Shown here: in pieces, positions 12,309 to 62,712 of the stretch | How the letters are laid out: each line of letters starts with the position of its first letter | How positions within the stretch are numbered: the stretch's first letter is position 1 | Assembly: GCA_030390025.1 (NCBI GenBank) | Contig: CM059432.1 | Span: forward strand, 4,774,001 to 4,838,000 | Source of the DNA: Squalus acanthias | Lineage: Eukaryota | Reading direction: 5' to 3' | DNA: 64,000 nucleotides | The notes under the pieces: generated by a model | Database searches by the model: none | What the model was told of the DNA's origin: nothing | The model's input: only the letters and a program-made list of their open reading frames with translations | Position numbers and translations under genes: made by a program

Positions 12309-12420
12309 CACAATCAAAAGTACAAAAGCAAAATACTGCGGATGCTGGAAATCTGAAATAAAAACAGAAAATGCTGGAAATACTCAGCAGGTCAGGCAGC
12401 GTCTGTGGAGAGAGAAACAG

Positions 12421-12457
12421 AGTTAACGTTTCAGGTCGATGACCTGTCGTCAGAAAT
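12421..12457 (-). ncRNA. Minimal type I hammerhead ribozyme motif (Penelope-associated)
   Basis: Minus strand reads auuu CUGACGA c agguc auc gaccu GAAA cg UU aacu; stem I is weak. Confidence 0.6.
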
Positions 12458-15457: not shown

Positions 15458-15962
15458 GGTCGGTAAATGAAGTCCTTCATACAATGTCCAAAGCGTTTCC
15501 AGTCTCCAGAAGAAGCAAAGCCGCTTGCAGGCCTTAAATCCAGCAGCACTGATGACATCATGGGAGGCGACTTTCTGTATGAAAAGACTCATTGGGCCAG
15601 GGGTTCCCACACGCTGGAAATCAAGTGCCCAATTAGGGGAAAATCCCACTTTTTTCCCACTTCACATCGGAGTCGGGGTCCTGACAGGAAAACCACCTGA
15701 CATGCCCCAGCCCGCCCCCAATGGCAAAATCGAGCCCACTAACTCTGTTTCTCTCTCCACAGATGCTGCCTGACCTGCTGAGTATTTCCAGCATTTTCTG
15801 TTTTTAATACAATCAAAAGTACTTCATTGGCTGTAAAGCGCTTTGGGACGTCCTGAGGTCGTGTCAGGTGCTATAGAAATGCAAGGTTTTTTCTTTCTTA
15901 AATCCCAGAATACTGGGATAAACAACTGTGCAAATGCAGTCAGTGGAGGCAATGCTATCCAA

Positions 15963-16096
15963 TAGCAAAATACCGCAGATGCTGGAAAACTGAAACAACA
16001 ACAGAAAGCGCTGGAAAAACTCAGTAGGCCAGGGCAACATCCGTGGAGAGAGAAACAGAGTTAACGTTTCAGGTCGAAGACCCTACGTCAGAACTG
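15963..16096. mobile_element. Penelope-like terminal fragment with a degenerate hammerhead motif
   Basis: Same arm as 12324-12457; minus strand agtt CUGACGU agggucuucgaccu GAAA cgUU aacu, with a core A changed to U. Confidence 0.65.
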
Positions 16097-16282
16097 AGAA
16101 AAAAAGCAGGAAATGAAACGGATGAGGTTGGGAGGCTGGGGGAGGGAATGAAAAAACAAAAGGGGAGGTCTGTGAGGAGTAGAGACATTAAGAGATGCTC
16201 AAGGCGAGACGAGATGGTAACAGGACAGGTTAAGAAACAAAAGATGGCTCAGAAGTGTGAAATGCGCTGGCAGAATGAAAGA

Positions 16283-16434
16283 CGCGGAGATGCCGGTGTT
16301 GGACTGGGGTGGACAAAAATGAGAAGTCGCACAACACCAGGTTATAGTCCAACAGTTTTATTTGAAATTACGAGCTTTCGGAGCGCTGCTCCTTCGTCAG
16401 GTGCAGGTACAGTGAGGGAATACAAATCGATTAC
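16283..16434 (-). mobile_element. Penelope-like terminal fragment (second family) with a hammerhead motif at 16367-16404
   Basis: ggagatgccggtgttggactggggtggacaaa...; minus strand gcac CUGACGA a ggagc agc gcucc GAAA gc UC guaa. Confidence 0.7.
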
Positions 16435-16537
16435 AAAGTATATATATCATGATGCGGAGATGCCGGTGTTGGACTGGGGTGGACAAAATTGAGAGGTCGC
16501 ACAACACCAGGTTATAGTCCAACAGCTTTATTTGAAA

Positions 16538-16580
16538 TCACAAGCTTTCGGAGCTATCGATTTGCTCCTTCCTCAGGTGA
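16538..16580 (-). ncRNA. Minimal type I hammerhead ribozyme motif
   Basis: Exact mirror of 16647-16689. Confidence 0.7.
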
Positions 16581-16646
16581 AGTAAATTAGATACAGAATC
16601 TCCAAAGCATATATATATGCTTTGGAGATTCTGTATCTAATTTACT

Positions 16647-16689
16647 TCACCTGAGGAAGGAGCAAATCGATAGCTCCGAAAGCTTGTGA
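16647..16689 (+). ncRNA. Minimal type I hammerhead ribozyme motif
   Basis: ucac CUGAGGA a ggagc aaaucgaua gcucc GAAA gc UU guga: stem I ucac/guga, stem II ggagc/gcucc, palindromic AAGCUU in place of stem III. Confidence 0.7.
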
Positions 16690-16707
16690 TTTCAAATAAA
16701 ACTGTTG

Positions 16708-17468
16708 GGGGGAAAAATTCAGCTGCTTGCGCCTCCCGTTAGCGCCTTAAGTGGGCGCTAATGGGGCGTAAAGCAGCTAACGCCCGGGCGCAGCGCCGCC
16801 CACGCCTCCCGAAAAATTTAGTGGGAGGTTAGCGGCGGCGGCAGCCGGTAGCGCCCTGTGGCGCTGCGCCGCCGGCGATGACGTCATCGCCGTGCGCAGC
16901 ACCCCGCTCACGCCCCGGCCGTGATCTTCAGTCGCGCCCCCTGATTTACCGCCAGACGCTATGTCCGACGGGTTCAGGGAGGCGTACGTGCGGCCGGGGC
17001 GGCGATATTTAAAGCGGAGGTGGCAGGCGGCCATTTTTGTTGCTGGCCGCCTGCCAGCACCTGCCCCCGGCCCCCGTGAAACCCCCCCACCGTGAAGTGC
17101 CGGCTGCGCTCCATGAGCCCGGCACTTCTCTTGAGTGCCGGGCTCTTTTGCCGGCACTCCCGATCCCTGGGGGCCCAGCTGGGCCCCGGTTCGCGCTGCG
17201 CAGGGTCCCTCCCCTTTAAGAAGGGGAGGAAGGCCTGCAATACCACGGCGCGACGTGCCGCAGCGCGTGGCGCTGCGGCACGTAGCGCCAGGATATTCAC
17301 TCGCAGCGCCCCAAGAGGGATGCGGGGTGCTTCCAGTTGCGCCCCGCTTCCCTCTTGGGGCGCAACCACTGAAGTTCCGGCGCGGGGCCGCTAATTTTTT
17401 CGGGGCGCTAAAAGTCGCGCCCCGGCGAGGTTAGCGCCCCAAATGGGGCGCGACTCAATTTTTACCCC
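16708..17468. mobile_element. GC/CpG-rich Harbinger-type MITE, family B
   Basis: TIRs gggggaaaaatt / aatttttacccc, TSD TTG; similar to 62082-62712 and to the ends of 18366-19261. Confidence 0.9.
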
Positions 17469-18070
17469 TTGGACTATAACCTGGTGTTGTGCGACCTCTC
17501 AAAAGTATATATAGACAGAGAACAATGTGTCCGTCAGGGAGGCATTACATCAAAGACATAGCAGAGTACAGCTAAGACAATGAGGTGGAGTCACAGGGGG
17601 TCCAACGTGTCAAATGCTGCAGTCTGCAGTTAAGCTTTTTACTTTTTTTTAAAAACTGGAAATCACATCTGTGAACCAGACAACGATGTCGAGTCACGTC
17701 CTGTAGCGTGACATGAAACCGAGATCCCAGAATGAAAGACAGCTGCCATGGGAGGCAATGCTATGTTGTATTCTGATTTGTGTGCCTTCAAGAATTGCCA
17801 AGCTGTCATCCCAGAAGTCCCACGTATTTCTTAAGATGAAGCAGTGCCTCATTTTGCATTTCTTCATACCAGCTTCAATTAAGCACTGTCTAAACCTTAA
17901 TTAAAAATGTGGGCGAACAGGAAATCCTCCTGTCATTGTCATTCGTGCTTTCTTTGTGTTGACTAAATCTGTTTTCATTGGAAGACAATCCATCATCTCT
18001 GCTGTCAAGATCACTTGAATTTGGTGACTCAGTCCTGCCATTTATTGTGGCTTCAAGTGGCTTTTGTTTG

Positions 18071-19435
18071 TGTCAGCCGTGGCTCAGTGGGTCGCACTCA
18101 CTCTCACCTCAGAAGGTTGTGGGTTCAAGTCCCACGCCAGGGACTCGAGCACAAAAATCTAGGCTGACACTCCCAATGCAGTGCTGAGTGAGCGCTGCAC
18201 TGTCGGAGGTGCCGTCTTTCAGATGAGACGTCAAACCGAGGCCCCGTCTGCTCTCTCAGGTGGACGTAAAAGATCCCAGGGCCACTATTTCGAAGAAGAG
18301 CAGGGGAGTTATCCCCGGTTTCCTGGCCAATATTTATCCCTCAATCAACATCACTAAAACAGATTGGGGTAAAAATTCACTTGGTTGCGCCTCCCGTTAG
18401 CGCCTTAAGAGGGCGCTAATGGGGCGCAAAGCTGCTAACGCCCGGGCGCAGCGATGTTTGCGCCGCTCGAGAACTTAACTTGAGATTGTGCGGCGGCGCT
18501 AAAACTTACCGCTGCGACCACCTGCGCACGCAGATTGTGACGTCATTCCATGGTGCAACGCCCTTGTGGCGCCCCGTAGCGGAAATTGAGTGGCGCCCCC
18601 TGCCTTACCGCCTGGCGCTTCCAACGACCGGAAGACTGGAACGCTATCAATCGCTGTGGGGCTGGGGGGGGGGGCGCTATTTAAAGGGGGCCTCTTCCTG
18701 TCTTTTATTGTTGGTGGCATTTTTGAACTACGCATTCTGAGAGAGAGAGGGAGAGACTTCTGGAGAGATTCAACGTTGTGTGAAGGAGTTTTGGGTACTG
18801 AGCAGCACTTTGCAGGTTCATTTTGATTTGCCATTCCTTGTATCGATTTAGCAGAGATTGTGGGAGCTGAACTCTGAGCTCTTTGCCTGGTACTCTCCAT
18901 TGTTCTTTCCAGCACATTTGATGTGCAAGTCTCTCCAGGCCGAGATTCAAGGCAGCAATGAACAGGATGTGGATGGAAAGCAAGATTAACCATCCCCTTT
19001 AAGAACTGGCCCGTGCCATTGTGTGTGTGTTCCATTGCTGACTGACATTACATGAGCTTCGCCAGCGCTCCGAGTTAGCGCCTCACTGCTCGGCCTTTGC
19101 GCCTTAAGAGAGGTGTGCAGCGCCTGCTTTAGCGCTCCACTCACCTCCCGGGGCGGTAAAAGTGAAGTTTCCTGTCAGTGCCGATAATTAGCGCCAGGCG
19201 CTAATATTTGCGTCCGGACGATATTTGCGCCCCAAATGGGGCGCGACCTAATTTCTACCCCATTATCTGGTCATTATCACATTGCTGTGGGATCTTGCTG
19301 TGTGCAAATTGGCTGCCGCGTTTCCCACATTACAACAGTGACCACACTTCAAAAAAGTACTTCATTGGCTGTGAAGCGCTTTGGGACGTCCTGCGGCTGT
19401 GGAAGGCGCTAGAGAAATGCAAGGCTTTGTTTTCT
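18071..19435 (+). mobile_element. SacSINE1-like Deu-SINE, split by a MITE
   Basis: tRNA-like head (tggctcagtgg, ggttcaagtcc), Deu-like core ggaggtgccgtctttcagatgagacg, L2-like tail. Confidence 0.85.
18366..19261. mobile_element. Harbinger-type MITE with family B termini
   Basis: TIRs ggggtaaaaatt / aatttctacccc; TSD ATT at 18363-18365 and 19262-19264; removal restores SINE aaaacagattatctgg. Confidence 0.9.
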
Positions 19436-24104: not shown

Positions 24105-25215
24105 TAGTGTTTTATAAAGGTTCATCATAACTTCCTTGTTTTGTACTCTGTGCCTCTATTCATGAAACCCAGGATCTCATAAGCCTTTTTAACTGCTTTC
24201 TCAACCTGCCCTGCCACCTTGAATGATTTGTGCACATATACCCCCAGGTCTCTCTGCTCATGCACCCCCTTTAGAATTGTACCCTTTAGTTTATATTGCC
24301 TCTCCTCATTCTTTCTACCAAAATGTATCACTTCACACTTTTCTGCGTTAAATTTCATCTGCCACGTGTCCACCCATTTCACCAGCCTGTCTATGTCTTC
24401 CTGAAGTCTATCATTCTCCTCCGCACTGTTCACTATACTTCCAAGTTTTGTGTCATCTGCAAATTTTGAAATTGTGCCCTGTACACCCACGTCCAAGTCA
24501 TTGATATATATCAAGAAAAGCAGTGGTCCTAGAACCGACCCCTGGGGAACACCACTGTATACCTTCCTCCAGTCTGACAAACAACCGTTCACCACTACTC
24601 TCTGTTTCCTGTCACTTAGCCAATTCCGTATCCATGCTGCCACTGTCCCTTTTATTCCATGGGCTTCAACTTTGCTGGCAAGCCTATTATGTAGCACTTT
24701 GTCAAACGCCTTTTTGGAAATCCATCAACCGCATTGCCCTCATCAACCCTCTCTGTTACCTCATCAAAAAACTCGATCAATTTGGTTGAACACGATTTGC
24801 CTTTAACAAAGTCATGCTGGCTTTCCTTAATTAATCCATACTTGTGCAAGTGACTGTTAATTTTGTCCCTGATTACTGTTTATAAAAGCTTCCCCACTAC
24901 CGAGGTCAAACTGACTGGCCTGCAGTTGCTGGATTTACCTTTATACCTTTTTTTGAACAATGATGTAACATTTGCAATTCTCCAGTCCTCTGGCACCACC
25001 CCCATATCTAAGGAGGATTGGAATATTATGGCCAGTACCTCCGCGATTTCCTCCCTCAATTCCCTCAGCATCCTAGGCCCATCCCACCTACTCCTGGTGA
25101 CTTATCTACTTTAAGTACAGCCAGCCTTTCTAATACCTCCTCTTTATCAATTTTTATCCTATCAAGTATCTCCACTACCTCCTCCTTCACTATGTCTATG
25201 GCAGCATCCTCTTCT
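24105..25215 (-). mobile_element. CR1 RT fragment
   Basis: VPEDWRIANV, GVPQGSVLGPLLFLIYINDL, KFADDTKL. Confidence 0.93.
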
Positions 25216-30062: not shown

Positions 30063-31092
30063 CAACAACAACAGCAACAACTTGCATTTACCCAGCGCCT
30101 TTAACGTAGTAAAACGTCCCAAGGCGCTTCACAGGAGCGATTGTTAAATTAAATTTGACACTGAGCCACTTAAGGTGATATTAGGGCAGGTGACCAAAAG
30201 CTTGGTCAAAGAGGCGGGTTTTAAGGAGCGTCTTAAAGGAGGAGAGAGAGGTAGAGAGGCGGAGAGGTTTAGAGAGGGAATTCCAGAGCTTAGGGCCCAG
30301 GCAGCTGAAGGCACGGCTGCCAATGATGGTACGTGTTGTTGCCTCCCAAATCCGTGCCCGTCTTTCCCGCAACTCCATGTTTGAATCCCTCCAATCAGGT
30401 TTCCGCCCTTGCCACAGTACCGAAGCGGCTCTCCTCAAAGTCACAAATGACATCCTTTGTGACTGTGACAAAGGTAAACTATCCCTCCTCGACCTTCGTG
30501 ACTTGTCTGTAGCCTTTGACACGGTTGACCACTCCATCCTTCTCCAACGCCTCTCCACCGTCGTCCAGCTGGGTGGAACTGCACTCGCCTGGTTCAATTC
30601 TTATCTATCTAATCGTAGCCAGAGAATCACCTGCAATGGCTTTTCTCCCACTCCCGCATCGTTACCTTTGGTGTCCCCCAAGGATCTATCCTTAGCCCCC
30701 CTCCTATTTCTCATCTACATGCTGCCCCTTGGCGACATCATCCGAAAACACAGCATCAGTTTCCACATGTACGCTGACGACACCCAGCTCTACCTCACTA
30801 CCACTTTTCTCGACCCCTTCCACGGTCTCTAAATTGTCAGACTGCTTGTCCGACATCCTTCTATTGCCTGAGCCCTAAGCTCTGGAATTGCCTGCCTAAA
30901 CCTCGCTACCTCTCTTTCCTCCTTTAAGATGCTCCTTAAAACCTACCTCTTTGACCAAGCTTTTGGTCATCTGCCCTAATTTCTCCTTATGTGGCTCGGT
31001 GTCAAATTTTGTGTCTTCTAATACACCTGTGAAGCACCTTGGGACGTTTTACCATGTTAAAGGCGCTATATAAATACAAGTTGTTGTTGTTG
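30063..31092. mobile_element. L2 fragments: minus-strand tail 30063-30325 joined to plus-strand RT and tail 30326-31092
   Basis: QSGFRPCHSTEAAL, AFDTVDH, YADDTQLY. Confidence 0.9.
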
Positions 31093-32849: not shown

Positions 32850-33720
32850 GGAGGAGGAAGCTCCAGGATTATCCCCGTCCTCAATGACGACGGAGCCCAG
32901 CACGCAAGTGCAAAAGACAAGGCTGAAGCGCTTGCAACCATCTTCAACCAGAAGTGCCGAGTGGATGATCCATCTCGGCCTCCTCCTGAGGTCCCCACCA
33001 TCACAGAAGCCAGTCTTCAGCCAATTCAATTCACTCCACGTGATATCAAGAAACGGCTGAGCACACTGGATACAGCAAAGGCTATGGGCCATGACAACAT
33101 CCCGGCTATCGTGCTGAAGACTTGTGCTCCAGAACTAGCCGCACCTCTAGCCAAGCTGTTCCAGTACAGCTACAACACTGGCATCTATCCGACAATGTGG
33201 AAAACTGCCCAGGTATGTCCTGTCCACAAAAAGCAGGACAAATCCAACCCGGCCAATTACCGCCCCATCAGTCTACTCTCAATCATCAGCAAAGTGATGG
33301 AAGGTGTTGTCAACAGTGCTATCAAGCAGCACTTACTCACCAATAACCTGCTCACTGATGCCCAGTTTGGGTTCCGCCAGGACCACTCGGCTCCAGACCT
33401 TGGTCCAAACATGGACAAAGGAGCTCAATTCCAGAGGTGAGGTGAGAGTGACTGCCCTTAACATCAAGGCAGCATTTGACCGAGTGTGGCATCAAGAAGC
33501 TCTAGTAAAACTGAAGTCAATGGGAATCAGGGGGAAAACTCTCCACTGGCTGGAGTCATACCTAGCACAAAGGAAGATGGTTGTGTTTGTTGGAGGTCAA
33601 TCATCACAGCCCCAGGACATCGCTGCAGGAGTTCCTCAGGGCAGTGTCCTAGGCCCAACCATCTTCAGCTGCTTCATCAATGACCTTCCCTCCAACATAA
33701 GGTCAGAAATGGGGATGTCC
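32850..33720 (+). mobile_element. CR1-group LINE RT fragment (distinct family)
   Basis: LAAPLAKLFQYSY, NYRPISLLS, QFGFR, AFDRVWH, GVPQGSVLGPTIF. Confidence 0.9.
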
Positions 33721-37423: not shown

Positions 37424-38270
37424 AGAGGTATAGCAGTAGGGATTGGGCTGCAGACAGCAAAACTAGTGCTGGTATACAGAAAGAATTTGACAAATAGCAC
37501 GGGCGTGTCAATGGGAAAGCAAAGATTTCTCACAGATAGCGTGCACACTAACAACTGTGACTCAGTGAGTAGCAGTCTCGCCTGAGTCAGCTGGTTGTGG
37601 GTCCAAGTCCTGCTCCAGGGACTTGAGCACAAAAATCTGGGTGTGCAGTGCTGAGGAAGTGCTGCACTGTCGGAGGTGCTGTCTTTCAGATGAGACATTA
37701 AACCGAGCCCTTGTCTGCCCTCTCAGGTGATCGTAAAAGATCCCACGACCACTATTTTGAAGAAGAGCAGGGGAGTTCTCCCCGGTGTTTTGGCCAATAT
37801 TTATCCCTCAATCAACATCACTAAAAAACAGATTATCTGGTCATTATCACATCACTGTGTGTGGGAGCTTGCTGCGTGCAAATTGGCTGCCGCGTTTCCC
37901 ACATTACAACAGGGACTACACTTCAAAAAGTACTTCATTGGCTGTAAAGCGCTTTGGGACGTCTGGTGGTCGTGAAAGGCGCTAGAGAAATGCAAGTTTT
38001 TCCTTCTCATGTGATTATTTTTTTCACCTGGGTGTTGCTCACCGCAGTGTCCAGGAGATGAATCTTTAATCTCTGGAGAACCCTATTTACACTCTGGCGG
38101 TATTCTAAAAAATAACCCCATCACAGCAACAACAACAACTTATATAGCACCTTTAATGTAGTAAAACGTCCCAAGACGCTTCACAGGAGTGATTATAAAA
38201 CAAAATTTGACACCGAGCCACATAAGGAGCTATTAGGGCAGATGACCAAATGCTTGGTCAAAGAGGTAGG

Positions 38271-39341
38271 TTCAACCTCCGTCACCTCCAGTCCAGATCC
38301 AAGGTCGTCCCATCCTCTGTCGTCGAATTACAGTATGCAGACGACGCTTGCGTCTGCGCACACTTGGAGGTCGAACTACAAACCATCGTTAACACCTTTA
38401 CCGAAGCGTACGAGAGCATGGGCCTTACATTAAACATCCATAAGACAAAGGTCCTCTACCAACCTGCCCCCGCCACACAGTACTGCCCCCCGATTATCAA
38501 AATCTATGACAAGGCCTTGGACAACGTGGACCACTTTCCATACCTCGGGAGCCTACTGTCAACAAGGGCAGACGTCGATGACGAAGTCCAACACTGCCTT
38601 CAGTGTGCCAGTGCAGCCTTCGGTCGCCTGAGGAAGAGAGTGTTTGAAGACCAGGACATCAAACTCGGCACCAAGCTCATGGTCTACAGAGCAGTAGTAA
38701 TACCCGCCCTCCTGTATGCCTCAGAGACATGGATCATGTACAGCAGGCACCTCAAAGCACTGGAGAGGTACCACCAACGCTGCCTCCGCAAGATCCTCCA
38801 AATCCATTGGCAGGTTAGGCGCACCAACATCAGTGTTGTCGCCCAGGCCAACATCCCCAGCATCGAAGCTTTGACCACGCTCGATCAGCTCCGATGGACG
38901 GGTCACATCGTCCGCATGCCCGATACGAGACTCCCAAAATAAGCGCTCTACTCGGAGCTCCGACACGGCAAGAGAGCCCCAGGTGGGCAGAGGAAGCGCT
39001 TCAAGGTCACCCTCAAAGCCTCCTTGAAAAAGTGCAACATCCCCACCGACACCTGGGAATCCCTGGCCCAAGACCGCACAAAGTGGAGGAGAAGTATCCG
39101 GGAAGGTGTCGAACACCTCGAGTCTCTTCGCCGGGAACAAGCAGAAGCCAAGCGCAAACAGCGGAAGGAGCGCACGTCAACCCAAGCATCCCACCCACCC
39201 GCCCCTTCAACCACCGTCTGCCCCACCTGTGACAGAGACTGTAGGTCCCGCATTGGACTTTTCAGTCACCTGAGAACTCATTTTTAATGTGGAAGCAAGT
39301 CATCCTCGGTTCCGAGGGACTGCCTGAGAAGAAGAAGAAGA
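38271..39341 (+). mobile_element. RTE-clade LINE fragment (end of RT to 3' tail)
   Basis: LQYADD, MGLTLNIHKTK, FPYLGS, LLYASETW, C-terminal zinc finger; stop at 38940. Confidence 0.95.
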
Positions 39342-44019: not shown

Positions 44020-45495
44020 GTACCCCATTCCTGCTTTCTCGCCATACCTCTTGATCCCCCTAGTTGTGAGTATTATATCTAACTCCCTTTTGAATATATT
44101 TAGCGAACTGGCCTCAACAACCTTCTGTGGTAGAGAATTCCACAGATTCACCACTCTCTGGGTGAAGAAGTTCCTCCTCATCTCAGTCTTAAATGGCTTC
44201 CCCTTTATCCTTAGACTGTGACCCTTGGTTTTAGTTTTCCCTAACATTGGAAACATTCTGCCCGCATCTAATTTGTCTAAACCAGTCAGGATTTTAAACG
44301 TCTCTATAAGATCCCCCCTCATTCTTCTGAACTCCAGAGGATACAAGTTCAGTTGATCCAGTCTTTCTTGATATGTCAGTCTGGCCATCCCAGGAATCAA
44401 TCTAGTGAACCTTCGTTGCACTCCCTCAATAGCAAGAATGTCCTTCCTCAAGTTAGGAGACCAAAACTGCACACAATACTCCAGGTGTGGCCTCACCAAG
44501 GTCCTGTACAACTGTAGCATCACCTCCCTACTCCTGTACTCAAATCCCCTTGCTAGGAAGGCCATCATGCCATTTGCTTTCTTGACTGCCTGCTGCACTT
44601 GCCTTCCCACCTTCAGTGACTGATGTACCATGACGCCCAGGTCTCGTTGCACCTCCCCTTTCCCTAATCTGCCACCATTCAGGTAATAGTCTGCCTCCCT
44701 ATTTTTACCACCAAAGTGGATAACCTCACATTTATCCACATTGTACTTCATCTGCCATACATTTGCCCATTCACCCTGTCCAAGTCACTCTGTAGCCTCC
44801 TAGCATCCTCCTCATTGTTCACACTGCCTCCCAATTTAGTGTCATCCACAAATTTGGAGATATTACAATTAATCCCTTCATCCAAATCATTAATATACAA
44901 TGTAAACAGCTGGCGCCCCAGCACCGAACCCTGCGGTACCCCGCTGGTCACTGCCTGCCATTCTGAAAAGTACCCATTTACTCCTACTCTTTGTTTCCTG
45001 TGTGCCAACCAGTTCTCAATCCACGTCAACACATTACCCCCAATCCCATGTGCTTTAACTTTGCACACCAATCTCTTGTGTGGGACCTTGTCGAAGGTCT
45101 TCTGAAAGTCCAAATACACCACATCTACTGGTTCCCCCCCGTCCACCCTATTGGAAACATCCTCAAAAAATTCCAGAAGATTTGTCAAGCATGATTTCCC
45201 TTTCACAAATCCATGCTGACTTGGACCTATCATGTCGCCACTTTCCAAATGGTCTGTTATGACATCTTTAATAATTGATTCCAGCATTTTACCCACCACC
45301 GATGTCAGGCTGACCGGTCTATAATTCCCTGCTTTCTCCCTCCCTCCTTTTTTAAAAAGAGGGGTTACATTGGCCACCCTCCACTCCTTCGGAACTGATC
45401 CAGAGTCTAAGGAATGTTGGAAAATGATCGTCAATGCATCCACTATTTCCAAGGCCACCTCCTTAAGTACTCTGGGATGCAGACCATCAGGCCCT
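44020..45495 (-). mobile_element. CR1 RT fragment
   Basis: ORFs 44748-45458 and 43903-44751 with the standard CR1 RT motifs. Confidence 0.95.
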
Positions 45496-46249
45496 TCTTC
45501 TTCGCAACAGTGCCACGGGATCTTTTACGTCCACCTGAGGGAGCAGACGGGGCCTCGGTTTAACGTCTCATCCCTAAAGACGATAAAGATTGGGCTCAGC
45601 CCTGATGCCCCCCCATGCCCGACTTAAGTAGGCCTTACCAGTGCCCATGGAACCACGCAAGTCACCACCTTCAGGGGAGGAAAGGAGAAAAAAGAAGAGA
45701 AATTAGTGCTAATTGCTTTCATTGTTAGGTTATTGCTAGTGGCGCCATGCAGCGATAAGCGGTTACTATTTCGCGACATTCATGCACGATCAATCTCAAT
45801 TAAACTGCGTCTTGATTCACGCTGTTTGATATCTTCAGCGGCGATGACAGACAGTCTGAAACTAGATTAGCTTTGGACTGCTGGCAGGACGGTCAATATT
45901 GACAGATAGAATTCATTGGGTTTGCCAGTCAGGAGGTGTACATTTCTGACACGCCCCATGAAGGTTGGTTTTAGATAATGATCTATAGTTGCTGTAGGAA
46001 CAGCTACCCAAATAGTTGCAGTATTGCGTTATTTTCATCCACTTTGTATGTCCAGGGGGGGAACCTTGCTTTTTCAACTGAACTTATGCAATCTGCAGCC
46101 TTGACCTTAGAAATGTTCAAATTTTAAAGGAATGGAAACATTAACAGAAAATTCAAGTCCAGAGTTCCAAATATATGTTTTCAATTCGCCTCTGTGTCCA
46201 CTGGCGATGGTCCACTGTGTAAAGGGCGGGAAGAGTTATAAAGAATAAA

Positions 46250-48612: not shown

Positions 48613-51332
48613 ATCATAGAATCATAGAATGGTTACAGCACAGAAGGAGGCCATTCGGCCCGTCGAGTCCATGCCGGCTCTCTGCAAGAGCACTTCAGCT
48701 AGTCCCACTCCCCCCGTCCTTTCCCCGTAGCCCTGCAATTTGTTTTCTTTCAGGTACTTATCCAATTCTCTTTTGAAAGCCACAATTGAGTCTGCCTCCA
48801 CCACCCTCTCAGGCAGCGCATTCCAGATCCTAACCACTCGCTGCGTAAAAAAGTTTTTCCTCATGTCGCCTTTGGTCCTTTTGCCAAGCACCTTAAATCT
48901 GTGTCCTCTGGTTCTCGACCCTTCTGCCAATGGGAACAGTTTCCCTCTATCTACTCTGCTAGACCCCTCATGATTTTGAACGCCTCCATCAAATCTCCTC
49001 TCAACCTTCTCTGCTCTAAGGAGAACAACCCCAGCCTCTCCAGCCTATCCACGTAACTGAAGTCCCTCATCCCTGGAATCATTCTCGTAAATCTTTTTTG
49101 CACCCTCTTTAAGGCCTTCACATCCTTCCTAAAGTGCAGTGTCCAGAATTGGGCACAATACTCCAACTGAGGCCGAACCAGTGTTTTATAAAGGTTCATC
49201 ATAACTTCCTTGCTTTTGTACTCTATGCCTCTATTCATGAAGCCCAGGATCCCGTTTGCTTTTTTAACCGATTCTCAACCTGCCCTGCCACCTTCAATGA
49301 TTTGTGCACACATACCCCCAGGTCTCACTGTTCATGCACCCCCTTTAGGATTGTACCCTTTAGTTTATATTGTCTCTCCTCGTTCTTTCTACCAAAATGT
49401 ATCACTTCGCACTTTTCTGCTTTAAATTTAATCTGCCACGTGTCCGCCCATTTCATCAGCCTGTCTATGTCCTCTTGAAGTCTATCACTATCCTCCTCAC
49501 TGTTCACTATACTTCCAATTTTTGTGTCATCTGCAAATTTTAAAATTGTTTCCTGTACACCCAAGTCTAAGTCATTAATATATATCAAGAAAAGCAGTGG
49601 GCCTAGTACCGACCCCTGGGGAACAGTCTGAAAAACAACCGTTCACCACTACTCTCTGTTTCCTGTCCCTTAGCCAATTTCGTATCCATGCTGCCACTGT
49701 CCCTTTTATTCCATGGGCTTCAACTTTGCTGGCAAGCCTATTATGTGGCACTTTATCAAACAGCTTTTGAAAGTCCATGTACACCACGTCAACCGCATTG
49801 CCTTCATCAACCCTCTCTGTTACCTCATCAAAAAACTCGATCAAGTTAGTTAAACACGTTTTCCCTTTAACAAATCTGTGCTGGCTTTCCTTAATTAATC
49901 CACACATGTCCAAGTGACTGTTAACTTTTTCTCAGATTATCATTTCTAAAAGCTTCCCCACTACCGAGGTAGTGTATATGGACTTTAGCAAGGCTTTTGA
50001 TAAGGTTCCACATGGCAGACTTGTCACGAAGTTAAAAGCCCATGGGATCCAGGGCAAAGTGTCAAGTTGGATTCAAAACTGGCTCGGAGACAGGAAGCAG
50101 GGGGTAATGCTTAATGGGTGTTTTTGTGACTGGAAGGCTGTTTCCAGTGGGGTTCCGCAGGGCTCAGTACTAGGTTCCTTGCTTTTTGTGGTACGTATCA
50201 ATGATCTAGACTTGAATATAGGGGGTATGATTAAGAAGTTTGCAGATGATACTAAAATCGGCTGTGTGGTTGATACTGAAGAAGGAAGCTGTAGACTGCA
50301 GGTAGATATCAATAAATTGGTCAGGTGGGCAGAACAGTGGCAAATGGAATTCAATCCGGAGAAGTGTGAGGCAATGCATTTGGGGAGGGCTAACAAGGCA
50401 AGGGAATACACATTAAATGGTAGGACACTGAGTAGTGTAGAGGAACAAAGGGACCTTGGAGTGCATGTCCACAGATCCCTGAAGGTAGCAGGCCAGGTAG
50501 ATAAGGTGGTTAAGAAGGCATATGGAATGCTTGCCTTTATTAGCTGTGGCATAGAATACAAGAGCAGGGGGGTTATGCTTCAACTGTATAAAACACTAGT
50601 TAGGCCTCAGCTAGAGTACTGCGTGCAGTTCTGGTCACCACATTACAGGAAAGATGCGATTGCACTAGAGAGGGTACAGAGGAGATTTACAAGGATGTTG
50701 CTGGGAGAAGAGAATCTTAGCTATGAGGAAAGACTGGATAGGCTGGGTTTGTTTTCCTTGGAACAGAGGAGGTTGAGGGGAGACCTTATTGAGGTGTATA
50801 ATATTATGAGGGGCACAGATAAAGCGGATAGAAAGGACCTATTTCCCTTAGCAGAGGGGTCAAAAACCAGGGGGCACAGATTTAAAGTAATTGGTGGAAG
50901 GTTTAGAGGGGATTTGAGGGGAAATTTCTTCACCCAGAGGGTTGTGGGGGTCTGGAACTGACTACCTGAAAGGGTGGTAGAGGCAGGAAACCCTAACCAC
51001 ATTTAAAAAGTACTTGGATGTGCACTTGGGATGCTGTAACCTGCAGGGCTACGGACCAAGAGCTGAGAAGTGGGATTAGGCTGGATAGCTCTTTGTTGGC
51101 CGGCGCGGACATGATGGGCCGAAATGGCCTCCTTCCGTGCTGTGACTTTCTATGATTCTATTCTATGAAACTGACTGGCCTGTAGTTGCTGGGTTTATCC
51201 TTACACCCTTTTTTGAACAATGGTGTAATATTTGCGGTTCTCCAGTCCTCTGGCACCACCGCCGTATCTAAGGAGGATTGCAAGATTTTCTCCTTAACTT
51301 CCCTCAGTGTCATAGGATGCATCCCATCCGGT
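48613..51332 (-). mobile_element. CR1 LINE interrupted by an opposite-strand CR1
   Basis: RT motifs at 48622-49970 continue at 51168-51332. Confidence 0.92.
49970..51167 (+). mobile_element. Younger CR1 insertion with a 329-aa open RT fragment
   Basis: YMDFSKAFDKVPH...KFADDTK...FFTQRVVGVWN; tail ttctatgattctattctatg. Confidence 0.95.
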
Positions 51333-52360: not shown

Positions 52361-54410
52361 CAACAACAGCAACAACAACAACTTGTATTTATATAGCGCC
52401 TTTAACGTAGTAAAACGTCCCAAGGCGCTTCACAGGAGTGATTATCAAACAAAATTTGATACCGAGCCACATAAGGAGATATTAGGACAGGTGACCAAAA
52501 GCTTGGTCAAAGAGGTAGGTTTTAAGGACAGTCTTAAAGGAGGAAAGAGAGGTAGCGAGGCGGAGAGGTTTAGGCAGGGAATTCCAGAGCTTAGGGCCCA
52601 GGCAGCTGAAGGCACGGCCGCCGATGGTGGAGCGATTAAAATCAGGGACGCTCAAGAGGCCAGAATTGGAGGAGCGCAGAGATCTCGGGGTTGGGGAGTG
52701 GTGGGGGGGGCGGGGGGGTGCAGTTGTGGGGCTGGAGGAGGTTACCGAGATATAGGGAGGGGCGAAGCCATGGAGGGATTTAGAAACAAGGATGAGAATT
52801 TTGAAATCGAGGCATTGCTTAACCAGGAGCCAATGTAGGTCAGCGAGCACAGGGGTGATGGGTGAACGGGACTTGGTGCGAGTTAGCAGAGTTTTGGATG
52901 ACCTCAAGTTTACGTAGGGTGGAAGATGGGAGACCGGCCAGGAGTGCATTGAAATAGTCAAGTCTAGAGGTAACAAAGGCACGGATGAGGGTTTCAGCAG
53001 CGGATGAGCTGAGGCAAGGGCGGAGACGAGCAATATTACAGAGGTGGAAATAGGCGGTCTTAGTTATGCCAAGGATATGTGGTCAGATGCTCATTTCAGT
53101 GTCAAATATGACACCAAGGTTGCAAACAGTCTGGTTCAGCCTCAGACAGATGTTAGGGAGAGGGATGGAGTCAGTGGCTAGGGAACAGAGTTTGTGGCGG
53201 GGACCGAAGACAATGGAGAAAATTTCTGCTCATCCAATACTGGATGTCGGACAAGCAGTGCGTCAATTTAGAGACCGTGGATGGGTCGAGAGAGGTGGTG
53301 GTGAGGTAGAGCTGGGTGTCGTCAGCGTACATTTGGAAACTGACGCTGTGTTTTCGGATGATGTTGCCAAGAGGCAACATGTAGATGAGAAATAGGAGGG
53401 GGCCAAGGATAGATCCTTGGGGGACATCAGAGGTAACAATGCGGGAGCGGGAAGAGAAACCATTGCAGGTGATTTTCTGACTATGATTAGATAGATAAGA
53501 ATGGAACCAGGCGAGGGCAGTCCCACCCAGCTGGACGACGGTGGAGAGGCGTTGGAGGAGGATGGAGTGGTCAACCATGTCGAGAAGAATGAGGAGGGAT
53601 AGTTTTCCTTTGTCACAGTCACAAAGGATGTCATTTGTGACTTTGATGAGAGCTGTTTCGGTACTGTGGCAAGGGCGGAAACCTGATTGGAGGGATTCAA
53701 ACATGGAATTGCGGGAAAGATGGGCACGGATTTGGGAGGCGACAACATGTTCAAGGACTTTGGAGAGGAAAGGGAGGTTGGAGATGGGGCGGTAGTTTGC
53801 AAGGACGGAGGGGTTAAGGGTTGTTTTTTTGAGAGGGTGCAGATTTGAATCAGAGGGAGACAGTACCTGAGGAAAGAGAAACGTTAACAATGTCAGCCAA
53901 CATGGGAGCCAGAAAAGGAAGTTGGGTGGTCAGCAGTTTGGTGGGAATAGGGTCGAGGGAGCAGGAAGTGGGTCTCATGGACAAGATGAGCGTGGAAAGG
54001 TCAAGAGGGGAGATCGGAGAGAAACTGGTGAAAGATGTGAGTTCAGGGCTAGGGCAGGGGTAAACCTTAGTTTGGCCCGGTGGGCAGGGGAAGGAAGGGA
54101 AGTGGCAGAGGCAGCTGAATGGATGGTCTCAATCTTAGAGACAATGAAGTCCATGAGCTCCTCACACTTGTTGTCGGAGGTGAGGGTGGAGGAGACAGGG
54201 GAGAGGCGTTTAAGAAGACGGTCAGCATTAGAGAATAGTAGCCGGGGGTTATCTTTGCATTCCAGATTGATCCTGGAATAGTGAGCAGTTTTGGCAGACG
54301 AGAGCAGGGCCCGATAGTGCTTTATGTGGTCCAGCCAGATCTGGCGGTGAATGGCTAAACCAGTTGTCCGCCTTATCCGTTCAGGTCTGCGTCCCTTGGA
54401 CTTGAGGGAG
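52361..54410 (-). mobile_element. L2 LINE, about 2 kb
   Basis: NYRPISNLPFLSKVLE, QSGFR, PQGSILGPLLF, YADDTQLY, (TTG)n tail. Confidence 0.95.
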
Positions 54411-55044: not shown

Positions 55045-56280
55045 AAGACTTGCATTTCTACAGCACCTTTCACAACCTCAGGATGTCCAAAAGTGCTTTA
55101 CAGCCAGTGAAGTACTTTTGAAGTGTAGTCACTGTTGTAATGTGGGAACCATGGCAGCCAATTTGCACACAGCAAGCTCCCACACACAGCAATGTGATAA
55201 TGATCTGATAATACATACGAACATACGAATTAGGAGCAGGAGTCGGCCACTCGGCCCCTCGAGCCTGCTCCACCATTCAATAAGATCATGGCTGATCTGA
55301 TTACTCCACATTCCTGCCTTCCCCCGATAACCTTTCACCCCCCTTACTTATCAAGAATCTATCTACCTCTGCCTTAAAAATATTCAAAGACTCTGCTTCC
55401 ACCGCCCTCTGAGGAAGAGAGTTCCAAAGACTCACGACCCTCTGTGAGAAAAAATTTCTCCTCATCTCTGTCTTAAATGGGCGACCCCTTATTTTTAAAC
55501 AAAAATGAGAAGTCGCACAACACCAGGTTATAGTCCAACAGATTTATTTAATTTTAATTTATTTAATTTTAAATTAAATAAATCTGTTGGACTATAACCT
55601 GGTGTTGTGCGACTTCTCATTTTTGTCCACCCCAGTCCAACGCCGGCATCTCCACATCATGACCTCTATTTTTAAACAGTGAGCCCTAGTTCTAGATTCC
55701 CCCACAAGAGGAAACATCCTCTCCACATCCACCCTGTCAAGACCCCTCAGGATCTTATATATTTCAATCAAGTCACCTCTTACTCTTCTAAACTCCAGCG
55801 GATACAAGCCTAGCCTGTCCAACCTTTCCTCATAAGACAACCTGCCCATTCCAGGTATTAGTCTAGTAAACCTTCTCTGAACTGCTTCCAACGCATTTAC
55901 ATCCTTCCTTAAATAAGGAGACCAATACTGTACACAGTACTCCAGATGTGGTCTCACCAATGCCCTGTATAACTGAAGCATAAGTTCCCTACTTTTGTAT
56001 TCAATTCCCCTCGCAAATATTGGCCAGGACACCGGGAGAACTCCTCTGCTCTTCTTCAAAATAGTGGCCATGGGATCTTTTACGTCCACCTGAGAGAGCA
56101 GACAGGGCCTCGGTTTAACATCTCCTCTGAAAGACAGCACCTCAGACAGTGCAGCACTCCTTCAGTACTGCACTGGGAGTGTCAGCCTAGATCTTTGTGC
56201 TCAAGTCTCTGGAGTGGGACTTGAACCCACAACCTTCTGACGCAGTAGGCGAGAGCGACCCACTGAGCCACGGCTGACAC
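55045..56280 (-). mobile_element. SINE containing a CR1 (about 55213-56013), which contains a Penelope-like fold-back
   Basis: Three-level nesting; CR1 motif LVRPHLEYCVQYWSPY. Confidence 0.85.
55499..55660. mobile_element. Penelope-like fold-back fragment
   Basis: Inverted arms of about 55 bp around an AT spacer; TATTTTTAAACA duplicated on both sides; same family as 16447-17501. Confidence 0.8.
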
Positions 56281-62081: not shown

Positions 62082-62712
62082 GGGGGAAAAATTTGGTTTC
62101 TTTGCGCCTCCCGTTAGCGCCCCAAGTTGGCACTAACGGGGCGCAAAGCAACTACCACCCAGGCGCGGCGGCGCCAACGCCTCCCGCGAAATTCAGCGGG
62201 AGTTTAGCGGTAGCCGGTAGCGCCCCGCATTGCTACACCTCCGGCGATGACATCATCACCATGCGCAGCGCCCCACTCGCGCAAACTTGGCTCGTGCCCC
62301 CTGACCTACTGCTGTGTCCGACAGGGTCAGGGGGCGTACTTGCGGCCGGGGCGGCGCTCATTAAAGGGCAGGTAGTGGGCGGCCATTTTTTTTGGGCCGC
62401 CTGCCAGCGCCTGCCCCCTCTGGCCTCCTCCTGCGGGGTGTCGGCCGCGATCGGTCAGCCCGGCGCTCCTCTTGAGTGCCGGGCTCTTTTGCCGGCACCC
62501 CACTCCCCGGTGATCCAGCAGGGCCCCGGCTAGGCCCCTCCCCTTTAATCAGGGGAGGGAGGCCTGCAGTACCGCGGCGCTACTGCACATAGCGCCGCGA
62601 TATTCAATGGGAGCGCCCCAAGAGGGAGGGGGAGCGCTTCCAGTAGCGCCCCGCCTCCTGCTTGGGGCGCTATCATTCAATTTCGGGCGCTAATTTTTTC
62701 GGGTTAGTGCCC
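62082..62712. mobile_element. Harbinger-type MITE, family B, right TIR lost
   Basis: Co-linear with 16708-17468; ATA on both flanks. Confidence 0.85.

Follow-up and report, generated by a model that had tools for sequence, protein, structure and literature searches.

Insertions of Penelope-like elements (PLEs) leave a recognizable architecture. In the portions of the literature on which we draw, an adjacent, inverted, 5′-truncated copy and a tail of 30-40 bp are described as characteristic of these elements (Craig et al. 2021, PMC8557442), and a curation guide lists inverted pLTRs and 3′ extensions for them (PMC8969392). The palindromes at PLE head-to-head junctions have been read as products of self-priming, the associated target-site duplications (TSDs) being 8-10 bp; the same source describes TATATATA within a pLTR (Arkhipova et al. 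2013, PMC3846280). The tail has been explained as the distance between two RT start sites, with both target strands cut and extended, and the AT-rich targets include the element’s own pLTR (PMC11167929). Further, PLEs are recorded as inserting into or next to earlier copies (PMC6765202). Minimal hammerhead ribozymes (min-HHRs) are in turn reported as pairs on opposite strands, 100-700 bp apart (PMC4209133).

In this report, we describe an insertion that looks like a clean example of the PLE pattern: two 5′-truncated PLE 3′ ends joined head to head. Positions 16527-16700 of the window (the whole 64-kb stretch of DNA analysed) equal their own reverse complement over 174 bp, as the first-pass annotation had claimed. 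Two 87-bp arms meet without a spacer at 16613|16614, and the first mismatch flanking them falls at 16526/16701. No other perfect palindrome in the window is as long; across dinucleotide shuffles (n=50) the longest perfect arm averaged 7.8 bp and reached at most 10, as against 87 in the real sequence. The palindrome is the core of a fold-back unit at 16447-17501, which measures 291 bp when a MITE lodged in it is set aside (about 290 bp had been given before) and which is bounded by a 12-bp, AT-rich TSD, likewise borne out as exact (16435-16446 and 17502-17513).

The two arms of this unit are joined at their 5′ ends and differ in length. The long arm (16447-16613, 167 bp, sense minus) has the make-up of a 5′-truncated PLE 3′ end (pLTR). 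The short arm (124 bp, sense plus) holds an upstream region, a hammerhead motif and an AATAAA-like motif in its first part, which runs from 16614 to the MITE at 16707; it resumes at 17472-17501 and stops 43 nt short of the long arm’s end. The last 43 nt of the long arm (16447-16489, minus strand) form an unpaired, one-sided 3′ extension, or tail. Before the MITE arrived the arms matched at 123 of 124 bp, so the earlier statement that perfect arms predate the MITE has to be amended to 124-bp arms with one mismatch. In public contigs, the variant at this sole mismatch is common in the family.

A palindrome of this kind could be an assembly or library artefact, the trace of a fold-back chimeric read. 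Assemblies are known to have difficulty with complex PLE insertions, according to the part of PMC8557442 cited here, and none of the 32 contig pieces listed spans the palindrome’s centre (there are 191,262 further pieces). A chimeric read, however, would mirror the flank too, and the arms differ at one base, with the MITE in one of them only and the tail on one only. Further, an exact TSD bounds the unit, and the empty target is visible in run X8 as the joint 16434>17502, with 12 shared letters. We consider an artefact extremely improbable.

The fold-back unit sits in a nest of four insertions at 15945-17764, with TSDs of 14, 13, 12 and 3 bp, all of them exact. From the outside inwards, the layers are the end of a second hammerhead-bearing repeat, an older copy of the unit’s own family, the fold-back unit and the MITE. 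The outermost layer (15959-17750, minus strand) lies between TSD copies at 15945-15958 and 17751-17764 and bears a motif near 16091 with one core change. Three pieces of this second family are present, at 12323-12455, 15740-15805 and 15959-16110; its hammerhead-like motifs near 12453 and 16091, both on the minus strand, have a palindromic stem III and one defect each.

The target of the fold-back unit was the older copy of its own family, which lies on the minus strand in two parts, 3′ (16284-16446) and 5′ (17514-17727), within a 13-bp TSD (16271-16283 and 17728-17740). Its 3′ part is 88% identical over 132 bp and carries its own hammerhead motif, with core and stem II intact and two of the four stem I pairs broken. 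Contig loose ends at 16283, seen in runs X3, X13 and X8, open with the sequence that lies 3′ of 17740. The older copy starts within the end of an ORF, of which the last 10 residues and the stop remain (17694-17726, minus strand); this peptide may resemble the end of a vertebrate PLE endonuclease. It found no match in the supplements of PMC11167929 or PMC8557442. The 12-bp TSD of the new unit falls in the older copy’s TA run, and this run aligns with the self-complementary TA run at the new unit’s fold-back centre (16604-16623). Thus, one repeat motif appears as both target and turning point.

The innermost layer is a GC-rich MITE of 761 bp (16708-17468), with 12-bp TIRs that match at 11 of 12 positions and a 3-bp TSD (16705-16707 and 17469-17471). 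Short TIRs and a 3-bp TSD are both traits of the PIF/Harbinger type, and by the length of its TSD we take the MITE to be PIF/Harbinger-like. Its CpG o/e is 1.02 (0.53 for the whole window), matching public contigs show no differences over 120 and 88 bp, and on this sequence evidence it looks young. It landed in one arm after the fold-back unit was in place. The first-pass annotation had offered youth or arm-to-arm conversion to account for the similarity of the arms. Youth is favoured by the young-looking MITE, and we attribute the near-identity of the arms to it; gene conversion between arms is unneeded, given a single mismatch in 124 bp and that same MITE. The MITE’s insertion site (16705-16707) lies about 20 nt downstream of the predicted hammerhead cleavage site. 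Two diverged relatives of the MITE, at 18366-19261 and 62082-62703, share 69-72% identity, and the first keeps both termini.

Four features of architecture point to membership of the PLEs: a 5′ truncation with an adjacent inverted head-to-head copy; a one-sided 3′ tail of about 30-40 bp, at 43 nt slightly longer than the published range (36 nt in a second insertion, at 55627-55662); a hammerhead motif in the terminal repeat; and an AT-rich target with a TSD of variable length, in or next to earlier copies. We argue from architecture because no parent RT or endonuclease was found. PLE protein motifs were absent from all 2,070 open stretches that reached 20 aa, and none of the 20 ORFs scanned matched GIY-YIG or a PLE-type family; 7 of the 20 matched RVT_1 only. 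The RVT_1 ORFs (24125-24724, 30194-30832, 32850-33440, 38226-38942, 44748-45524, 49918-50961 and 53171-53929), six of which score above the Pfam cut-off, are probably LINE remnants.

Very probably, then, the unit is a truncated PLE insertion with an inverted pLTR and a tail. We hold with like confidence that it is a single insertion, dead on arrival, which an endonuclease-positive (EN+) PLE made in trans. The complex insertions of EN+ PLEs share with it the head-to-head inverted 5′-truncated copies, the palindrome at the junction, the one-sided tail, the TSD at an AT-rich site and the insertion into an earlier copy. They differ in that here only the pLTR end of each copy is present (167 and 124 bp) and no ORF separates the two, and for this reason the whole insert is a spacer-less palindrome. 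There is also a likeness to PAc, a Poseidon PLE of Anolis carolinensis (Frangieh et al. 2024, PMC11167929), in the tail, in the AT-rich site with cleavage of both strands and in a hammerhead just upstream of the tail. In the account of PAc cited, two RT start sites set the tail, and inverted junctions are not modelled; of the present family no protein was recovered, and we therefore assign it to no clade.

A second fold-back of the same family lies at 55499-55662. It consists of 56-bp exact arms around a 16-nt AT filler, with a 36-nt tail on the right arm (55627-55662) that ends at the same sequence as the first unit’s tail. It has its own AT-rich TSD in a LINE-like repeat, other copies of which run through the site. 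Unlike the first unit, it turns just upstream of the AATAAA-like motif, and it is without a hammerhead. Such units can therefore do without the ribozyme and without the TA centre. Five bases adjacent to its junction differ from those of the other two copies in the window, yet are mirrored in both arms, and its 16-nt middle repeats the end of an arm. The sequence of this one case suggests that the 55-kb copy was made by DNA-templated copying with slippage.

These two insertions bear on whether the inversion belongs to retrotransposition at all. A single truncated PLE copy might have inserted first and been turned into a palindrome later, when the host repaired a break at the TA run by theta-type end joining or by fold-back synthesis. 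The TA run at the centre would suit such a break, and the duplicated AT filler at the 55-kb copy’s junction resembles, we presume, the inserts of templated repair. However, both arms lie inside the exact 12-bp TSD, and in each of the two copies the short arm ends about one tail length before the long arm does (43 and 36 nt). These facts tie the inversion to the insertion event, and we think a later repair event very unlikely.

For a truncated PLE insertion, a course of events can be proposed from the TSD, the target, the end points of the arms, the tail and the order of nesting, all of which are observed directly. The GIY-YIG endonuclease of a PLE would have cut the AT-rich TA run in the older copy’s pLTR, giving the 12-bp TSD. 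Reverse transcription would have begun at the tail end and come to a halt about 167 nt further on, in the TA run that lies upstream of the hammerhead. The 3′ end of the cDNA would then have snapped back and been copied on itself to within 43 nt of its start, which would yield head-to-head arms and a one-sided tail. Another possibility is that each target strand primed a cDNA, at one or the other of the two RT start sites, and that the two products annealed via the TA run. Given the PLE explanation, we consider snap-back self-priming moderately probable, since junctions coincide with self-complementary features and since the 55-kb copy, albeit a single case, mirrors bases that its relatives lack. 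Twin priming with annealing at the TA run is plausible, if somewhat short of probable. The TA run alone is predicted to form no DNA hairpin (-0.1 kcal/mol up to 16618); hence, snap-back priming there would have to be weak or enzyme-assisted. Further, the lone mismatch between the arms is a common family variant, so that a pair of templates would account for it just as well as a mutation acquired later.

The family was also sought in public sequence, by comparing four of 20 listed public runs, all four consisting of assembled contigs, with 16000-17800 at 90% likeness; bins that had no cover in X13 and X8 were given no weight. Summed depth over the arms was 1e5-1e6 in two DNA runs of organism A, with 6.7 and 14.4 over unique flank; contig depth is not copy number, yet these values mark the family as very abundant. 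A scan with a family pattern gave no matches in the metagenome-contig and viral-contig collections; the one match in the genome-contig collection (L001) lies inside a bacterial coding gene and was set aside as chance. The comparison yielded 705 joints. Among the 15 listed are the empty target, one head-to-tail tandem and 13 joints of an antisense to a sense arm. Five of these 13 were fully read across the junction, at five different pairs of points; the other eight contain unread letters and may be alignment breaks between subfamilies. A junction at the unit’s own centre, 16613|16614, cannot register as a joint, and the joint counts omit such centres. The 55-kb copy folds elsewhere and the contigs show other junctions, so in the sequences compared the family has no one defining fold-back point.

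Some of these junctions recur, and this is relevant to a different proposal, namely that the 291-bp palindrome is one member of a non-autonomous family whose copies all centre on the TA run and are re-mobilised whole by PLE proteins. The junction 16554>16673 is a fold-back exactly on the hairpin of hammerhead stem II; it occurs in three of the four runs and in two organisms, with a depth of 1955 in 11 contigs of run X13 (organism C). The junction 16582>16665 has a depth of 393 in X1 and 278 in X3, and 16400>16673 was found in three of the four runs. In organism A the summed depth of some junctions is about 60-400, as against 6.7-14.4 for unique flank. Identical junctions can therefore recur, and they may do so through hot spots or through re-amplification. 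It is possible that 16554>16673 is a self-priming hot spot. Indeed, the recurring junctions lie on a hairpin or on short microhomologies, where hot spots would suffice, and the sole other fold-back in the window (one of one) has a different centre and no hammerhead.

As a bidirectional TATA box, the TA run could start divergent transcripts just ahead of each hammerhead, which would thereby escape antisense pairing; in two subfamilies a similar distance, about 33-38 nt, separates it from the hammerhead core downstream. According to the passages cited from PMC3846280, a pLTR is enough for mobilisation in trans, and an Adineta pLTR was suggested to contain a bidirectional TATATATA. In contrast, the promoter of Penelope in D. 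virilis is described as TATA-less in the part of PMC2377424 on which we rely. A re-mobilised palindromic family is, in our estimation, unlikely. Of the alternatives given in the first-pass annotation, a truncated fold-back insertion of a PLE has gained from the one-sided tail, the head-to-head arms, the AT-rich TSD, the second and different insertion and the other junctions in contigs. The independent ribozyme-bearing retroelement has found no support but keeps a small probability, since some contig junctions recur at depths well above single copy; the only other fold-back in the window differs in its centre.

An important question is what the hammerhead motifs contribute. Our call rests on a minimal type-I descriptor built for this analysis and on published min-HHR features, since no Rfam hammerhead model matched. 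Rfam returned nothing at gathering score over the whole window, and none of its 54 matches at E<=10 over 16200-17600 was to a hammerhead model; the best of these were miRNA-precursor models scoring the hairpin and were dismissed as chance. The descriptor matched exactly twice in the 64-kb window, at 16647-16689 (plus, short arm) and 16580-16538 (minus, long arm), recovering both motifs that had been annotated, with predicted cleavage after 16685 and 16542, respectively. Shuffled controls gave any match in 1 of 100 cases and a match with a palindromic stem III in 0 of 100. The motif at 16647-16689 has a 4-bp stem I, an intact core, an extra A between 9 and 10.1, a 5-bp stem II with G10.1-C11.1 and a loop-less palindromic stem III. 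Variation in the family leaves the core untouched: the two subfamilies in the window differ in loop II and at two variable positions.

All four of the min-HHR traits listed in the cited part of PMC4209133 are present at 16647-16689, and the motif resembles those ribozymes in being of type I, in its short stem I, in the extra nucleotide at 9/10.1, in G10.1-C11.1 and in the palindromic, loop-less stem III. Its stem II has 5 bp, and those of the Schistosoma min-HHR families have 7-8 bp. Opposite-strand pairs are known there at the wider spacing given above, whereas the motifs here, which are predicted from sequence, are 67 bp apart within one perfect duplex. A hammerhead on each strand is an automatic consequence of a palindromic sequence. 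The hammerhead is the family’s normal pLTR motif, and its mirror copy is a by-product. A cooperating pair on opposite strands was considered and rejected: a dimer requires both of its copies in the sense orientation, and what the mirror copy does instead is pair with the motif.

Published accounts, as far as the cited parts go, bear on activity. Single min-hammerhead motifs were uncleaved and dimers were weakly cleaved (PMC4209133), and cleavage as a dimer was noted for PLE hammerheads (PMC6765202). In the Anolis element PAc, cleavage required protein, and insertion in vitro did not require cleavage (PMC11167929). By analogy with these, the present hammerhead would be of the dimer-dependent type. 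In its native context the RNA is predicted to fold into one long duplex (-163.2 kcal/mol, z -28). With an arm alone, stem II has a predicted pairing probability of 0.21-0.25 and stem I one of 0.01, and the ribozyme helices fall to 0.0 when the antisense arm is present in a read-through transcript; the hammerhead is thus predicted to be fully sequestered by that arm. Because it needs a dimer partner and would be paired to the antisense arm in any read-through transcript, the hammerhead is probably silent at this locus.

One arrangement at the locus could supply such a partner, and would thereby favour a re-mobilised family. On the minus strand, the unit and the older copy place two hammerheads in tandem, 170 nt apart. 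However, the stem III that this dimer would form has a predicted pairing probability of 0.0, and two of the four stem I pairs of the older copy are broken, as noted above. The tandem also recalls the non-LTR retrozymes (bioRxiv 10.64898/2026.07.22.740005), which are likewise non-coding, carry type I hammerheads and are related to PLE pLTRs. As described in the portion of that preprint cited here, a retrozyme is a head-to-tail tandem in which two or more hammerheads are intact, whereas the arms of this unit are head-to-head and the older copy that happens to lie in tandem with it is damaged. Retrozyme identity was accordingly rejected, the unit being head-to-head and the older tandem copy failing the hammerhead descriptor. 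In our literature search we found no paper on this family or on a palindromic PLE derivative with a fixed centre; repeat databases were outside that search, and the family may be catalogued in them.

A broader proposal is that self-complementary features of the pLTR, namely the TA run and stem II, set the fold-back points of the family, and that some palindromes, including the TA-centred one, have been re-amplified as a non-autonomous family. We consider this combination improbable. If it were true, the re-amplified centre would be a bidirectional TATA box for two hammerhead-led transcripts, or the source of a long hairpin RNA feeding PLE silencing. A palindrome re-mobilised as a family would represent a novel type of non-autonomous PLE derivative, with a built-in source of double-stranded RNA.

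As a truncated PLE insertion, the unit adds little beyond the described pattern, but it is useful as a natural record of how PLEs make inverted pLTRs. From the sequences at hand we lean towards DNA-templated self-priming as the process behind these inverted pLTRs, because the centre lies in a TA run, a contig junction falls on the stem II hairpin and the 55-kb copy mirrors bases foreign to the family.
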